Shown here: piece by piece, positions 1-5,882 of the stretch
Layout: every line of letters starts with the position of its first letter
How positions within the stretch are numbered: the stretch's first letter is position 1
Origin: Chloroflexota bacterium
GTDB lineage: Bacteria; Chloroflexota; UBA11872; VXOZ01
Length of the DNA stretch: 64,000 bases
Assembly (NCBI GenBank): GCA_963663275.1
Contig: OY760183.1
Span: 3,200,001 to 3,264,000, forward strand
Direction of reading: 5' to 3'
Notes under the pieces: model-generated
What the model was told of the DNA's origin: nothing
What the model saw: only the letters and a program-made list of their open reading frames with translations
Databases searched by the model: none
Translations under genes and position numbers: made by a program

Positions 1-1
1 G

Positions 2-157
2 GCCACTGAAGAGGGCCTCTGGGCCACCTTCGTCCATCCCTCCCCCGGCGCGTCGGAGATCGTGTACGGCCACACGTGGAGCATCCGCTACGACGGGCTG
101 CTCTTCTACTCCTCCTACTACGACGACCGCCCCGAAGTCCCCCACCCGCCGGACTGA
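2..157 (+). CDS. C-terminal end of a Cache (sCache_2-like) domain protein, 5'-truncated by window edge
   Basis: Frame 2 reads ATEEGLWATFVHPSPGASEIVYGHTWSIRYDGLLFYSSYYDD...PD then TGA at 155-157, resembling the Cache pattern GxWxxYxxxxP...HxW...DGLxFxSxxY. Not in the ORF track. Confidence 0.6.
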   Translation, partial: ATEEGLWATFVHPSPGASEIVYGHTWSIRYDGLLFYSSYYDDRPEVPHPPD

Positions 158-172
158 CGGTGAATCGCATTC

Positions 173-255
173 CCCTGCCGGCGGCCACGCTGTGCCACGG
201 CAGGAGAGATCGAGAAAGGTCGCGACGAAGATTTGGTGGGCTGGGGAGGACTGAA
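173..255. repeat. att-like direct repeat, distal copy (hairpin arm + tRNA-Val 3' core)
   Basis: Shares CCCTGCCGG, CACGCTGTGCCAyGGCAGGAGAGAkCGAGA, GATTTGGTGGGC (230-241) and GAGGACT with 3395-3478. Arm-to-core spacing is 57 nt in both copies. Confidence 0.85.
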
Positions 256-534
256 TTGCGAACTTTTCGCTGGGAGATACTGATATAAGGAGGTGGGTCT
301 GGTGTAAGTCCAACGCCCCTTCCGATGCCTCCCCCGACCGCGGCGTTACGACGAGCGCACTGCCCAGGCGTTGGTCGTGCTGCCCGCCGTCGCGCACACG
401 CGGCGCCTGAGGAGCGAGAGGCCGATGGTGTGGGTCACTGCTACGTCAGCCCCCGTATCTCACAGCGTCGTGAAGGCGTTCGCCGTGGCCAGCAGGTCGA
501 CCCAGCCCTGGCCCGCGCTCGTACCACGCCGGCC

Positions 535-2751
535 CTACTTTGGCGCGGCCGTTATTGAGAACTTCGTGACGCGGGTGTTGGCATCGGGAGTCCAAGAGGA
601 GCCGCTATTGGTGGAGGCGGTGTACGTGTTGCCGATTGTCCACCCGACGGAGCCGGTTTCGTCGTTCGAGGCGGTAGCCGCCCAAGTGAAGCTGTAGCCG
701 CTGGTGGCGCTCAGCACCAGGAAGTAGCTCGTGCCGGCGGAGAGGTCGCAGGCGGCGCCGGAGCAACTGAAGGTGTAGGCGCCGTTCGCGTCCCCCGTGT
801 TGGTCAGCGTGACCAGGCTGCTGTTGGGGTTGGCGTTGCCGCTGCCCTTGGAGAAGATGCGCAGGGTAACGTTGCTGCTCCCGCTGCCCGGGCTGATTGG
901 GACGGTTACTTCGGACACGGTGTAGCCGTTGGTGTTGCTGCCGGTGGTGAACTCGTTGGCAATCCACGCGCCGCCGGACGTGCTGGGCGAACCCTGCGTC
1001 GAGGTTTCCGACAGGTTGCTGACCCCTACTGGCGTCGTGAAGCTGACGGTTTGGAGCGCCGTCGTCGCGCAGGCGGAGTCGCTGTACGCCTTGTAGGTGT
1101 AGTCCGCGCCTCCCGTCAGGCTGCTGAGCGCGTGGGAGTAGTCAGACTCGCCTGCCGTGCACGTTCCGATGGTCGGCGCAGTCTCCTTCAGCCACCAGTC
1201 CCCAACGTGCCCCGCCAACGTCAGTGTGGCCGTCGTGGGGGTGATGCTGGACGCGGAGAACGAATAGAGGTCGAACGTCGTCGCCGCCACGTGGTAGTTG
1301 CAGCCGCCGTCCGAGTAGGCTGCGACGGCGTGGGTTCCGTCCTGGTAGCCCGCGATGCCGCTGACGGTGTTTCCGGACACAGCAGTGCAGGTTCCCCACC
1401 AGTTGATGCGGAACCACCAGTTGCTCGGCCCGCCGATGAGCGTGAGGGCGACCGAGCGGTCGGTGTTCACCGTAGCCGTCAGGGTTGCGGTGGGAATGGT
1501 GAATGGCGACGACGCAATCTTGGTATGGCAGCCGCTGTCGGAATAGGCGGCGACGGAGTGGGTTCCCGGCTGGTAGCCCCGGATGTTGCTGACGGTGGTT
1601 CCCGTCGCCGCCGTGCAGGCGCCCCAGTAGTTGATGCGGAACCACCAGTTGCTCGGCCCGTTGGACAAGTTGAGGTTAACCGAGCGGTCGTCGTTGACCG
1701 TGGTTGCCAGGGTTGCCGTGGGCGGCGGGTCGGGAATGACGAAATACGCATCTGTGAGGAAGTCCGTGCAACCGGCAGTGGCGAAAGCGCTGGCCTCGTG
1801 GTATCCCGGCGCGTAGCCTTGGATGCCGCTGACGGTGGTCCCGGTTACCGCCGTGCAGGAGCCGATGCCGATGCGGAAATACCAGGGGGACGGCCCGTTG
1901 GACAGGGTGAGGTCAACCGAGCGGTCGGTGTTCACCGTAGCCGTCAGGGTTGCGGTGGGAATGGTGAACGACGACGACGCAATCTTGGTATGGCAGCCGC
2001 TGTCGGAATAGGCGGCGACGGAGTGGGTTCCGGCCTTGTAGCCCCGGATGTTGCTGACGGTGTTTCCGGACGCAGCCGTGCAGGTTCCCCAGTAGTTGAT
2101 GCGGAACCACCAGTTGCTCGGCCCGTTGGACAGGGTGAGGTCAACCGAATGGTCGCTGTTCACCGTAGCCGCCAGGGTTGTGGTGGGAATGATGAAATAC
2201 GCATCTGTGAGGAAGTCCGTGCCCGCGCAGCCGGCAGTGGCGAAAGCGGTGACCTCGTGGTATCCCGGCGCGTAGCCCTGGATGCCGCTGATGGTGGTCC
2301 CGGTTACCGCCGTGCATGTGCCGATGCCGATGCGGAAGTACCAGGGGGACGGCCCGTTGGACAGGGTGAGGTCAACCGAGCGGTCGCTGTTCACCGTCGC
2401 CGTCAGGCTTGCGGCAGAAATGGTGAACGTCGTCGCTGCTATCTGGTCGGCGCAGTTGCTATCGGAATAGGCCCAGACGGAGTGTGTCCCCAGATTGTAG
2501 CCCTGGATGCCGGTGATGCTGTTGCCGGTCACCGCCGTGCAGGTGCCCCAGGAGTTGATACGGAACCACCAGTTGCCCGTATGGTTGGAGATGGCGAGGT
2601 CAACCGACTTGTCGCCGTGCACCGTCGCCGCAAGGCTGGCAGACTGCGCTGACATTGGGGATGGGTAAGAACCGGCGACGGCCAGCAGAGCCAGCAGCAG
2701 GGCGGCCAGCCTGACCCAACGGGTTGCGGAAAATGCGCTTTGCAGTTTCAT
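535..2751 (-). CDS. Secreted repeat protein: six ~76-aa two-Cys beta-rich repeats, FN3-like module, C-terminal choice-of-anchor R-like domain
   Basis: Start MKLQSAF... at 2751 with signal peptide (RWVRLAALLLALLAVAGS). Repeats LxATVNxDxSVxLxLSNGPSxW(W/Y)FRI...C...GY...C; C-terminal SNL...FTTGSNxxGYxxxxV...LxAGTSYFLVL. The ORF-track start at 3087 is an unlikely extension. Confidence 0.8.
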   Translation of the reverse strand: MKLQSAFSATRWVRLAALLLALLAVAGSYPSPMSAQSASLAATVHGDKSVDLAISNHTGNWWFRINSWGTCTAVTGNSITGIQGYNLGTHSVWAYSDSNCADQIAATTFTISAASLTATVNSDRSVDLTLSNGPSPWYFRIGIGTCTAVTGTTISGIQGYAPGYHEVTAFATAGCAGTDFLTDAYFIIPTTTLAATVNSDHSVDLTLSNGPSNWWFRINYWGTCTAASGNTVSNIRGYKAGTHSVAAYSDSGCHTKIASSSFTIPTATLTATVNTDRSVDLTLSNGPSPWYFRIGIGSCTAVTGTTVSGIQGYAPGYHEASAFATAGCTDFLTDAYFVIPDPPPTATLATTVNDDRSVNLNLSNGPSNWWFRINYWGACTAATGTTVSNIRGYQPGTHSVAAYSDSGCHTKIASSPFTIPTATLTATVNTDRSVALTLIGGPSNWWFRINWWGTCTAVSGNTVSGIAGYQDGTHAVAAYSDGGCNYHVAATTFDLYSFSASSITPTTATLTLAGHVGDWWLKETAPTIGTCTAGESDYSHALSSLTGGADYTYKAYSDSACATTALQTVSFTTPVGVSNLSETSTQGSPSTSGGAWIANEFTTGSNTNGYTVSEVTVPISPGSGSSNVTLRIFSKGSGNANPNSSLVTLTNTGDANGAYTFSCSGAACDLSAGTSYFLVLSATSGYSFTWAATASNDETGSVGWTIGNTYTASTNSGSSWTPDANTRVTKFSITAAPK

Positions 2752-3125
2752 GTCAGCCTCTCTTTCAGCCGGAACTGGGTCGCCGCGCTGGGCGGGGCAG
2801 CCGTGAACACGCCGACAATGTAACTCTTGGCGTTGTCCACGTCGAACGTGATGCTGGTGGCGCCGTGGTCGAGCGCGGCGAGTTCCCAACTCGCGCCGCC
2901 GGTCGAACTGTAGGTTACGTGGTACGTGGTCGCGCCGGAGACGGCGGGCCACGAGGCGGACAGCGTGCCGTCGGCGCGTGTCACCGACACCGAGGTGGGG
3001 GCGCCGGGCGGCGACTGCGCCAGCGCAGTAGACGGCAGCAGCGCCAGCGCGACGAGCGCCAGCGCCACGAACGCGGCGAGCCGCCACGCCGATGAAGGTC
3101 GTGAAAACACACGTCGCATTCCCAT
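2748..3125 (-). CDS. Short secreted protein with one truncated fibronectin type III domain (possible remnant)
   Basis: Signal peptide then PPGAPTSVSVTRADGTLSASWPAVSGATTYHVTYS...SYIVGV. The FN3 stops before the last strand. TGA overlaps the next ATG (ATGA). Confidence 0.65.
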   Translation of the reverse strand: MGMRRVFSRPSSAWRLAAFVALALVALALLPSTALAQSPPGAPTSVSVTRADGTLSASWPAVSGATTYHVTYSSTGGASWELAALDHGATSITFDVDNAKSYIVGVFTAAPPSAATQFRLKERLT

Positions 3126-3270
3126 GTCATGCCTTTCAAGTAGTCACGTCAACGTGAATATACCGTGATGACTTGTCGCCCCTCTCATTGTGGGGGGAGG
3201 GCTCGACCTGGCTCCATCCTCGACACGGGGTTGAGCATGAATCGCTATGTAAGTAATGTGCCCATCAAGC

Positions 3271-3324
3271 ACTATACACTACTAGAGGACTATATACTTG
3301 TAGAGGACTATATGCTATCAGAAT
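3271..3324. repeat. AT-rich 18-bp tandem repeat x3
   Basis: ACTATACACTACTAGAGG / ACTATATACTTGTAGAGG / ACTATATGCTATCAGAAT. Confidence 0.75.
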
Positions 3325-3394
3325 ACGTTACCCTATTGTCAACCAAATTGCCGGCTGATTAGGGTTTAGACGCAGGAATGTGGAAGGCAAGGCA

Positions 3395-3478
3395 CCCTGC
3401 CGGGCACACGCTGTGCCATGGCAGGAGAGAGCGAGAGGGGGACGTGGCTGCGATTTGGTGGGCAAGAGAGGACTCGAA
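3395..3478. repeat. att-like direct repeat, tRNA-proximal copy
   Basis: Hairpin CCTGCC-G-GGCACA-CGC-TGTGCC-AT-GGCAGG followed by core GATTTGGTGGGC overlapping the tRNA 3' end. Matches 173-255. Confidence 0.85.
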
Positions 3479-3532
3479 CCTCCGGCCTCCACGATGTCAA
3501 CGTGGCGCTCTAACCGGCTGAGCTACTTGCCC
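3456..3532 (-). tRNA. tRNA-Val(GAC)
   Basis: Reverse complement GGGCAAGTAGCTCAGCCGGTTAGAGCGCCACGTTGACATCGTGGAGGCCGGAGGTTCGAGTCCTCTCTTGCCCACCA: cloverleaf, anticodon GAC, TTCGA T-loop, encoded CCA. Confidence 0.97.
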
Positions 3533-3630
3533 TTCCTCTATTGCGGAGTATAGCATGGGAATCACCCTTGGGCAATCGTTTCGAGCCGGCGCGCCGCCGC
3601 GCCGGCGGCACCGAACCTGGAATTGCGCGC

Positions 3631-5082
3631 GTGACAATTTCCATTCAAGACATCGACCTCAACGTCCTCAACATGCGGACGCGGATGCCCTTCCGCTACG
3701 GCATCGCCTCGCTGGAGTCCGTGCCGCACCTCTTCCTGCGCGTGACCGCGGACGTGGACGGCGCGGCCGCCGCGGGCGTCGCCGCCGAGGGCCTGCCGCC
3801 CAAGTGGTTTACGAAAGACCCCGACACCACGTTCGCGGAAGACCTGGACGAAATGCTGGACGTCATCCGCCAGGCCGTCCGCTTTGCCCTGGGTGCGCCC
3901 GCGGCGGCAAGCCCCTTCGACCTGTGGCGCGAACTCTTCCTGCGCCAGGCGGATTGGGCGGCCGATACACGCTACCCGCCCCTGCTCTGGGGCTTTGGCG
4001 TGAGCATGGTGGAACGGGCGGTGATCGACGCCTTCTGCCGCGCCGCCGGCACGACGTTCGGGCACGCATTGCGGGAAAACACCCTCGGCGTGCGCCTGGA
4101 AGCCGTCCACCCGGAACTCGCCGGTTACGCGCCGGCCGACCTGCTGCCGGAGCGCGCCAGCCGCGCGATGATCATCCGGCACACCGTCGGCCTGGCCGAC
4201 CCGCTTACCGACGGCGACGTGCCGCCGGACGAGCGCCTGAGCGACGGCCTGCCCCAATCGCTGGAAGCCAGCGTGCGCTTCTACGGCCTGCGGCGCCTGA
4301 AGATCAAGCTCTCGGGCGACACCGGCGCGGACATCGAGCGGCTGCAACGGATTGCCGGCATCATGGAGACCCACGCGCCGCCCAACTACGCCCATACGCT
4401 GGACGGCAACGAGTTCTATACGGAAGTGGAGCCGTTTCAGCGCTTCTGGGAGACGATTCAGGCCGAACCTTCACTGCGCTCTTTCCTGGCGCGCGCGCTC
4501 TTCGTGGAGCAGCCGCTGCACCGCGACGCGGCGCTGGGCGAGCCGGTGAAGGCGGACCTGCGGCGCTGGCGCGACCGGCCGCCCTTGATTATCGATGAGT
4601 CCGACGGCGAGATGAACAGCCTGGCCGACGCCCTGGCCTGCGGCTACGCCGGCGGCAGCCACAAGAACTGCAAAGGCGTCTTTCGCGGCATCGTGAACGC
4701 CTGCCTGCTCGCCCTCTACCGGCGGCGCGCTCCCGGCCAGGCGTTCATCCTGAGCAGCGAGGACCTGTGCAGCGTGGGGCCGGTGGCAATGATCCAGGAC
4801 CTCACCGTGGCGGCGAATCTTGGCATCGAGCACGCGGAACGCAACGGGCACCACTACTTCGCGGGTTTGAGCATGTACCCGGAAAGCGTCCAGGCGCAGG
4901 TGCTGGCGAACCATAGCACCATCTACCGCCGCCACGAGGATGGCTTTCCGGCGCTGGACGTGCGCCAGGGGCGCGTGGACGTTTCCAGCATCGTGGACGC
5001 CCCTTTCGGCTACGGCTTCGACTTCGATACCACCCAGTTCACGCCGCTGGATGAGTGGACGGTTGATTCGTTAGAGGATTGA
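3631..5082 (+). CDS. Enolase-superfamily (mandelate racemase-like) protein
   Basis: KIK, TLDGNE, FVEQP, IIDESD, SHKNCKG and ERNGHHY motifs. GTG start at 3631. Confidence 0.7.
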   Translation: MTISIQDIDLNVLNMRTRMPFRYGIASLESVPHLFLRVTADVDGAAAAGVAAEGLPPKWFTKDPDTTFAEDLDEMLDVIRQAVRFALGAPAAASPFDLWRELFLRQADWAADTRYPPLLWGFGVSMVERAVIDAFCRAAGTTFGHALRENTLGVRLEAVHPELAGYAPADLLPERASRAMIIRHTVGLADPLTDGDVPPDERLSDGLPQSLEASVRFYGLRRLKIKLSGDTGADIERLQRIAGIMETHAPPNYAHTLDGNEFYTEVEPFQRFWETIQAEPSLRSFLARALFVEQPLHRDAALGEPVKADLRRWRDRPPLIIDESDGEMNSLADALACGYAGGSHKNCKGVFRGIVNACLLALYRRRAPGQAFILSSEDLCSVGPVAMIQDLTVAANLGIEHAERNGHHYFAGLSMYPESVQAQVLANHSTIYRRHEDGFPALDVRQGRVDVSSIVDAPFGYGFDFDTTQFTPLDEWTVDSLED

Positions 5083-5128: not shown

Positions 5129-5425
5129 CACCGCTTTCCCACGTTACAACGCTTTCCCAATGTCCGGTAGCGCAGGTTTGCAACCTGCGCCCTCCCCTGT
5201 TTCGACCGGTAGCGTAGGTTTGCAACCTGCGTCGCGGGTGTTTGCAGGGCTGCGTCGCGGGTGCTTCCACGGCCCGCGAAAACCGTTCGTGCTGAGTGGG
5301 TCGAAGCATGAACGGTTTTCGCGTACAACCTACGGCTCATCCGTTCACCCTTCGACACGCTCAGGGCGAACGGATGAGCCTCGCCGCTGCGCGAACGGAT
5401 GAGCTTCGCCGCTTTGCGAACGGAT
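5129..5425. repeat. Intergenic REP cluster with short tandem duplications
   Basis: Two GGTAGCGyAGGTTTGCAACCTGCG palindromes (5166, 5208), a CCGTTCGTGCTGAG...TTCGAC..GCTCAGGGCGAACGG pair (5283-5373), and 18-, 23- and 25-bp duplications. Confidence 0.85.
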
Positions 5426-5459
5426 AATGCTCGGCGACAGCGCCCGTGCGCACTCCACC

Positions 5460-5882
5460 TCAGCCGCCCTCCTGCGCGAAGAGGAGAATGTGGCCGTTGC
5501 AGTCTTCGATTTCGAACTCGCGCAGTCCCCAGGGCTTTGTAACGGGGCCGTCCGCGTACTCCGGCCTGAGCGTGACTCCCCGCCGCCGGTATTCCGCAAA
5601 CAACGCATCGATGTTCACACAGTGGATATAGGTATACCCGGCCACGGTCGGCACCGCGCCGTGCCGCCGCCGGTAGCCAGTGAAACGCATCCGCTGCGGA
5701 CTCTTGCCTCCCCCGCCGCCGATGGAGACGCGGGCGTGTCCGCCGCGCGCCGTATCCACGAAGTCAAGCGTGAAGCCGAGAATCTCGCAGTACCACGCCG
5801 CGGTGGCTTCAACGTCCGCGACTTCCAACACGGGCTGTAGGCCGTAGAACCCGTACCGTTCGGCGTCGATGGGCGCGTTCAT
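5460..5882 (-). CDS. VOC/glyoxalase/bleomycin-resistance family protein
   Basis: PVLEVADVEATAAWYCEILGF and KPWGLREFEIEDCNGHILLF motifs. Confidence 0.88.
   Translation of the reverse strand: MNAPIDAERYGFYGLQPVLEVADVEATAAWYCEILGFTLDFVDTARGGHARVSIGGGGGKSPQRMRFTGYRRRHGAVPTVAGYTYIHCVNIDALFAEYRRRGVTLRPEYADGPVTKPWGLREFEIEDCNGHILLFAQEGG

Follow-up and report, generated by a model that had tools for sequence, protein, structure and literature searches.

The window analyzed here, a 64,000-nt stretch of the genome of a Chloroflexota bacterium (G000:C1:3200001-3264000, to which plain positions below refer; the genome is a single contig of 3.53 Mb, 64% GC and 99.6% complete), contains close to its left edge an islet that is located between an intact tRNA-Val(GAC) gene and a displaced 3' fragment of such a gene. 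The core of an earlier note on this DNA thus holds: the segment between the two is free of integrase genes, and it is absent from the closest relative, G011. The overall explanation that accounts best for the data, and that we regard as reasonably probable, is that a lineage-specific islet arose by insertion at, or by recombination into, the 3' part of tRNA-Val(GAC) and is now a fixed fossil. That the islet is an immobile fossil at a tRNA hot spot appears likely; the specific route, site-specific integration in the T-loop, is put forward tentatively, as a serious possibility.

Direct repeats at the tRNA-Val(GAC) gene

A MAFFT alignment shows that positions 173-255 are homologous to 3395-3478, and a repeat search finds the strongest blocks at 186-215 versus 3407-3436 (93% identity) and 230-252 versus 3452-3474 (87%). 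The two direct repeats of ~83 bp with a shared hairpin arm and core that the earlier note described are therefore real. Mean column identity is 76% in a 142-column alignment of 150-290 with 3372-3512, flanks counted in. The 24-mer of the hairpin arm, CACGCTGTGCCAYGGCAGGAGAGA, occurs in two copies in the window, and at least two matches were obtained in 0 of 100 shuffles. The spacing of 57 nt from repeat start to core, noted as identical in both repeats, is so numerically but solely through two compensating 1-nt indels; the arm-to-arm and core-to-core distances (3221 and 3222, respectively) differ by 1 nt.

The right core is, as claimed, the CCA end of an intact tRNA-Val(GAC) gene (val53, 3456..3532, minus strand; Rfam RF00005, 71.8 bits), which is the outermost unit of the array described below and the sole tRNA reported by ARAGORN in the window; an Rfam scan detects tRNA only and nothing else. 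On the tRNA strand, the right repeat consists of the final 23 nt of val53 and 61-62 nt of downstream flank with the hairpin. The left repeat has the tail of the tRNA but not the rest of it, with similarity extending from the TTC of the T-loop through CCA into the same flank. The displaced fragment, from T-loop to CCA, occupies 234..255 (minus strand), as delineated by the alignment and a genome pattern search. Its closest matches in the genome are the 3' ends of the two tRNA-Val(GAC) genes, val53 and val52; the final 19 nt show 2 mismatches to val52 and 3 to val53, and a reversed control pattern gave 0 matches. The right arm (3395..3455, minus strand) lies directly downstream of the tRNA and forms the hairpin CCTGCC..GGCACA-GCG-TGTGCC..GGCAGG without a T tract; the left arm (173..233, minus strand) is its paralogue in which the hairpin is kept. 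On the other side of val53 lies the promoter TTGCCC-17-TGcTATACT (3547..3575, minus strand), which is also found ahead of all other full tRNA-Val(GAC) copies of the genus. Two other roles considered for the arm were rejected: both arms form the hairpin with a stability not beyond that of shuffles (z -0.72 and -1.78), which speaks against a structured RNA, and no terminator with a T tract was found.

The islet interior contains two ORFs (open reading frames) with coding character, both on the minus strand, and family scans identified no integrase, transposase or replication families there, in agreement with the earlier note. The gene to the right of the tRNA (3631-5079, plus strand, 483 aa) has orthologues in 16 of 16 same-genus genomes (79-87% identity across the genus, with a 62-65% identical paralogue in most genomes) and no match in Pfam or NCBIfam at the thresholds used. 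A tRNA is found beside this gene in only one of the 15 loci examined, that of G011 (the closest, 87% amino acid identity), in addition to the genome analyzed here. The order in G011 is a polyketide synthase (PKS) gene, a PIN/PhdYefM toxin-antitoxin pair, a tRNA-Val 100% identical to val53 and the right-hand gene; neither the arm nor the cassette is present at that locus. Thus, the slot right after the tRNA differs in the two nearest genomes, with the PIN/Phd pair in one and the islet in the other.

Several observations bear on the mobility of the islet. In the complete genome the arm is present in these 2 copies (pattern search with up to 3 mismatches and short-word BLAST), which gives no support to the suggestion that the same arm marks a further cassette to the left; an additional 23-nt BLAST match of the repeats is the 3' end of the second tRNA-Val gene. 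The absence of further copies leftward is half of what the note expected of an ordinary decayed island; the other half, relatives with a Cache gene and the arm directly abutting the tRNA, was not observed, the relatives having neither. No arm was detected in the tRNA-Val regions of 15 same-genus genomes, and a search of 98 genomes of the class with the 76-nt flank returned, beyond the two known copies, three matches of 20-36 nt (E 0.001-0.007) that were taken as chance. The exact 24-mer of the arm has 0 matches in genome_contigs, and a 22-mer 0 in metagenome_contigs.

The recombinase content of the genome is equally sparse. The serine recombinase families PF00239 and PF07508 gave 0 matches in the genome (in control searches they were positive in 12 and 2 of 14 known genomes, respectively). 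PF00589 (Phage_integrase) has 2 matches, 345 and 579 kb off, both of which score best as XerC/XerD and reach 82-86 bits with the integron-integrase model TIGR02249, against a cut-off of 265. The same two Xer-like tyrosine recombinases are found in each of the 17 genus genomes, the exceptions being a third PF00589-type match on another contig in G009 and a stop-interrupted second match in G014. Serine recombinases are encoded in 4 of the 17 genomes: three of them are distant or on other contigs, and that of G014, a fragmentary assembly, is carried by another, small contig. In none of the 17 was a site-specific recombinase detected close to the tRNA-Val locus. The left junction (debris, arm, stump and cassette end) is bridged by Logan contigs from runs X1, X2 and X3, which belong to three studies and of which X1 may be the source sample, with 2-5 differences. 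A cassette-skipping joint is absent from the 15 of 37 joints listed, all in contigs, where rare excised forms are invisible; the joints seen lie within the repetitive gene.

Proposed integration and relation to known islands

If the favored explanation is correct, the incoming DNA would have carried its own tRNA end, from T-loop to CCA, together with a downstream hairpin flank, and the crossover would have taken place in the T-loop of the chromosomal tRNA gene. The outcome would be a regenerated intact tRNA (3456-3532 with the arm 3395-3455) and an older 3' end with its flank (173-255) pushed to the far side; the responsible recombinase would since have been lost from the genome, and the repeats would have drifted to about 76% identity. 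The combination of a regenerated tRNA and a same-orientation 3' fragment that starts in the T-loop (TTC-AGTCCTC) is the signature used for mapping tRNA-gene (tDNA) islands. In the part of the Islander report used here, a 3' fragment is given for 3760 of 3919 islands and an attP site in the T-stem region for 1836 (PMC4383910).

As far as that part of the report describes them, Islander islands resemble the islet in having an intact tRNA at one end and a same-orientation 3' fragment from the T-loop or T-stem at the other, and in being absent from the nearest relative; tandem islands are known as well, with 125 tandem arrays among the 3919 (PMC4383910). The islet has the intact tRNA and the cognate fragment on the same replicon, the fragment starts at the canonical crossover sublocation (the T-loop, with a 1-nt indel), and the segment is missing from the same site in a close relative, G011. 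Unlike the islands in that collection, it has no integrase gene inside and would fail the filter applied there, carries 3.2 kb of cargo, and its repeat extends 62 nt beyond the tRNA at ~76% identity. Thus, the islet works like a worn member of the tDNA-island kind, with negative results in those tests of membership that depend on a recombinase.

The nearest precedent in the same class, as judged by the nearest cargo homologues, is provided by the ssrA islands of Dehalococcoides. According to the portion of the source used here, these use the T-loop as insertion point, have 20-bp repeats of the ssrA 3' end as boundaries and depend on the serine recombinase DsiB for movement; they form tandem islands downstream of one small-RNA gene, show extra conservation around the repeats, and include some without the integration module, which are discussed as cis-mobilizable or fixed (PMC3146451). 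The islet differs from these: the target here is tRNA-Val(GAC) and not ssrA, the tmRNA gene (genome 3064905-3065264) being 135 kb away; there is no DsiB or DsiA serine recombinase in the genome; and the repeats in the genus are whole promoter+tRNA genes and not 20-bp cores. The concept of cis-mobilizable elements (CIMEs), as cited in the same portion of that source, likewise includes DNA flanked by attachment (att) sites that lacks recombination or transfer genes and stands in tandem with other units at one site (PMC3146451). A CIME, however, needs a co-resident integrase that recognizes its att sites; no candidate is present in this genome, and the repeats are ~76% identical. Integron cassettes are small cargo units bounded by hairpin-forming sites and without their own recombinase. 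The islet is similarly small, hairpin-bounded and devoid of a recombinase, but the integron-like nature proposed for it is not borne out: there is no IntI and no series of attC sites (there are two arms only, and the left-hand unit terminates at a tRNA copy that has another flank), and the site is a tRNA gene. Integron cassettes mostly lack promoters and are read from a common Pc; the islet has an upstream AT-rich, promoter-like region of its own.

Several points weigh against the favored explanation. The repeat extends 62 nt beyond the tRNA end, which simple att duplication does not predict, so that the incoming DNA would have needed a homologous flank. Given the ~76% identity and the 1-nt indel that blurs the start of the similarity in the T-loop, the crossover site is itself a reconstruction. 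The remaining tRNA-Val copies of the genus are complete genes with promoters and not 3' fragments, so that homologous recombination or old paralogy fits these at least equally well, and the boundary at one junction in G016 is imprecise. In addition, no integrase remnant was seen in the islet, and its GC content (62-67%, compared to 64% in the genome) gives no compositional sign of foreign origin.

tRNA-Val arrays across the genus and alternative routes

Among the 16 relatives, 9 have two or three same-strand tRNA-Val(GAC) copies, 1.1-12.6 kb apart; with the genome analyzed here (G000), 10 of 17 genomes carry such tandem copies. In 15 same-genus genomes (L030-L044) the loci consist of 1-3 tandem promoter+tRNA copies each. 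In an alignment of 32 tRNA-Val units (31 copies and the stump in the window) from 16 of the 17 genomes, with G014 left out, all full copies share the promoter ATTGcC, 17 nt, TGCTATACT. Conservation ends right after CCA, and there are 11 different downstream flanks among the 32 units. The commonest flank lies ahead of a conserved PhyH gene (15 units) and the next ahead of a DUF1538/P-II/CBS set (5 units); the arm-type flank is found with val53 and the stump only. In G016, one junction has no tRNA stump ahead of the PhyH flank. Several distal copies have acceptor-stem mismatches common to more than one genome (GGACAAG in G009_b, G013_b and G002_b), which suggests that they are old, decaying copies.

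In the genome analyzed here, the second tRNA-Val(GAC) gene, val52 (genome 3182313-3182389; L045:2313-2389, minus strand), has the same orientation as val53, is 91% identical to it and lies 18 kb away; its acceptor stem has an A4-G69 mismatch, and its T-stem is mismatched at the top (T-C). The promoter is also retained at a third copy (genome 3180659-3180735; L045:659-735, minus strand), which is too degenerate for ARAGORN. Thus, a stretch of 23 kb contains four units derived from tRNA-Val(GAC), all with the same orientation: val53, the fragment, val52 and the degenerate copy; val52 and the third copy look like decaying redundant tRNA genes. The tandem stack that the earlier note envisaged stands as a series of units bounded by tRNA-Val, the next of which ends at val52, 18 kb to the left, but without an arm at its far end. 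The shuffling of cargo that was part of the same proposal is not supported by the shared cargo families, which occur in identical order around the tRNA copies across the genus, a pattern that we read as differential gain and loss. In the genus as a whole, the tRNA-Val locus is a hot spot of plasticity.

Cargo of the relatives includes two DUF1538 genes with P-II and CBS genes, an FN3 protein with 2 IS5-like transposases, ORFs of 1072-1082 aa and small unknowns. These maps were made with one crude ORF filter (GC3 of at least 0.70), which may hide low-GC genes, and 10 ORFs and the PIN/Phd pair were scanned against Pfam. An 800-aa FN3 protein of G005, also encoded behind a tRNA-Val copy, was considered as a relative of the 738-aa cargo protein of the islet and proved unrelated.

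These arrays lend themselves to an integrase-independent route, which we consider unlikely for the islet: DNA with a tRNA-Val 3' end and flank, e.g., a circle looped out between tandem tRNA-Val repeats of a donor, would have been inserted by RecA-type homologous recombination with duplication of the whole homologous stretch, and loop-out deletion and insertion would drive cargo turnover genus-wide. This route agrees with a duplicated stretch, the tRNA end and the 62-nt flank, that exceeds the usual att core, with a repeated unit that elsewhere in the genus is the whole promoter+tRNA (about 130 nt), and with the lack of a dedicated recombinase near the locus in the 17 genomes; the A4-G69 mismatch of val52 could mark a mosaic copy. 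However, 83 nt, whatever the original identity, is short for efficient homologous recombination, and the left repeat stops in the T-loop instead of covering the whole tRNA. Furthermore, the cargo order is the same in all genomes, so that most of the pattern can be accounted for by plain vertical inheritance combined with differential loss, and neither a circle nor an empty site was seen in the contigs. A broader version, to which we give little credence, has the promoter+tRNA-Val(GAC) unit of ~130 nt itself as the recombination site of a recombinase-independent cassette system in the genus. Cargo that starts exactly at CCA would then loop out and re-insert between tRNA copies, within and between strains, yielding arrays of 1-4 units and no fewer than 11 different cargoes downstream of them in 16 genomes that otherwise have almost no site-specific recombinases, and the islet with its 83-nt repeat would be one product.

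The left repeat could also be the stump of a once complete tRNA-Val+arm copy from which an unrelated deletion or insertion removed the promoter and the 5' two-thirds, in which case the 3.2 kb would not have been inserted as a single att-bounded unit; this, too, is improbable. The genus typically has full-length copies in tandem, the pseudogene debris to the left of the repeat shows local decay, and the G016 junction shows that a tRNA can be lost by imprecise deletion. Nevertheless, the break falls inside the 7-nt T-loop, a canonical place of crossover, which a random break in a 77-nt gene would hit with a ~1-in-10 chance, and there is no trace of a promoter or 5' tRNA part at 256-370. The model of the earlier note, a non-autonomous att-bounded cassette in an integron-like stack that is still mobilized in trans by one shared (serine) recombinase, can draw on the att-like direct repeats, the lack of a recombinase of its own and, as far as the consulted part of that source goes, the class precedent of tandem Dehalococcoides ssrA islands, some without an integration module (PMC3146451), but is very improbable given an arm with 2 copies in the genome and none in 97 other class genomes or two public contig collections, a genome with no serine and no non-Xer tyrosine recombinase, repeats that are 24% diverged, cargo homologues that are not att-bounded elsewhere, and the lack of a cassette-skipping joint among those listed.

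With insertion at the tRNA-Val(GAC) 3' part followed by fixation as the favored explanation, the islet itself is unexceptional, a scar left by gene gain at a tRNA gene, and shows the entry of a lineage-specific operon for secreted proteins into one species. The wider pattern is more useful: the genus is nearly devoid of site-specific recombinases, yet its tRNA-Val locus has up to four tandem copies and highly variable cargo (type I PKS, KatG, MATE pump, toxin-antitoxin pair, and DUF1538/P-II/CBS genes). Should this turnover be driven by homologous recombination between the tRNA copies, tRNA genes could serve as hot spots for islands in the absence of integrases; the clustering of islands at tRNAs has so far been explained in part only.

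Cargo, left flank and minor features

The larger islet gene (535..2751, minus strand) encodes a 738-aa protein with an N-terminus that reads like a signal peptide and a C-terminal choice-of-anchor R domain (residues 578-735; NF041539, E 6e-28). The protein contains alternating Trp/Cys-rich tandem repeats of ~76/155 aa, with a DNA period of about 228/460 nt. The second gene (2748..3125, minus strand) encodes a 125-aa protein, also with a signal-peptide-like N-terminus by reading; no family scores above cut-off, and its FN3-like character is indicated solely by a sub-threshold Pfam match and a PGAPT motif. The presumed promoter/operator of this two-gene operon is an AT-rich upstream region (3230..3360, minus strand, about 52% GC), so that the cassette carries its own 130-nt AT-rich stretch with TATAGT-like boxes. 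Three 18-nt tandem repeats (AGSACTATAYRCTW...) at 3268-3321, each with a TATAGT-like box on the operon (minus) strand, may be stacked promoters or operator sites; they lie in the only AT-rich stretch of the region. The remainder of the islet is a non-coding tail of 279 nt (256..534, no strand assigned) that is unrelated to the loci holding the cargo homologue. Altogether, the cargo appears to be a self-promoted two-gene operon for secreted repeat proteins, probably with a surface or adhesion function.

The 738-aa protein has no homologue in the 16 same-genus genomes and weak, domain-level matches only in 3 of 44 other genomes of the class. Public assemblies hold relatives with 81-90% identity (P0003-P0008), including homologues in species-representative metagenome-assembled genomes of Dehalococcoidia (84% in L057 and 82% in L058). 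At the L057 and L058 cargo loci there is no tRNA within 6 kb and no arm, and DNA similarity to the islet starts about 25 nt ahead of the ATG and does not go beyond the stop codon. Since the DNA homology is confined to the gene, these matches point to horizontal acquisition of the gene and not of an att-bounded cassette, and we read the 738-aa gene, on sequence comparison, as probably acquired horizontally. The right-hand neighbor gene has no match in the L057 and L058 genomes, an empty answer that is uninformative there. No relatives of the cargo were found in JGI metagenomes among 32 pattern matches. A plasmid or phage origin was considered and set aside, as a blastn search with 160-3480 gave no match in genome_contigs or metagenome_contigs.

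In L057 (754-14485) and L058 (106-8688), the 738-aa homologue is encoded in a row of very large same-strand ORFs, with ORFs of 2019 and 1950 aa, respectively, before it and, in L057, one of 1633 aa after it. BLASTP shows some short motifs in common between the 125-aa protein and the upstream ORFs of both loci. A possible origin of the 125-aa gene as a remnant of these giant ORFs was considered; the similarity amounts to just a 33-residue match at the FN3 start (E 0.06 and 0.015).

To the left of the islet, the window starts with a Cache-like remnant (1..157, plus strand) that is the 3' end of a startless frame and part of the pseudogene debris between the islet and the PKS gene. The frame is open for 100 codons, starts 145 nt before the window and lacks ATG, GTG and TTG in its first 69 codons; a stop and a PQQ-like fragment lie ahead of it. 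The frame has no Pfam match of its own. Single repeat units of proteins of 565-572 aa share 45-46% identity with it, and one of these proteins (572 aa, from G011) matches sCache_2/dCache_2. The left neighbor that had been taken for a Cache-domain gene is accordingly a remnant, although the distance stands: the frame ends at 155-157, 15 nt left of the repeat.

Further left follow a type I PKS of 3596 aa, an IS30-family transposase, KatG, a MATE pump, val52 and a PhyH-family gene. The PKS gene (L045:8571-19361, minus strand, i.e., G000:C1:3188571-3199361) lies about 640 nt left of the window, between two tRNA-Val copies, and encodes the domains KS-AT-DH-cMT-ER-KR-ACP followed by a second KS that has a CurL-like C-terminal linker; in G011, the same place is occupied by an orthologue of 3480 aa. 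This domain order presumably resembles that of the 'Sup' methyl-branched fatty-acid PKS of sponge symbionts. Sponge metagenome is the label of runs X2 and X4-X6, which contain the stretch. The transposase (L045:7054-8064, plus strand; NF033563, E 2e-70) lies beside KatG and the MATE pump in the 18-kb unit between the stump and val52.

Two minor features were noted elsewhere. Just after the 483-aa gene, the intergenic positions 5160-5480 are densely occupied by short direct repeats of 21-26 nt (families D5, D14, D16 and D18) and include near-perfect inverted repeats at 5275-5293/5305-5323 (95%) and 5334-5351/5363-5380 (94%). In the genome as a whole, ARAGORN reports over-long tRNAs of 90-99 nt, namely two Cys(aca), Arg(acg), Ala(agc), Asn(gtt) and one with an undetermined anticodon, which are either false positives or unusual or interrupted genes.

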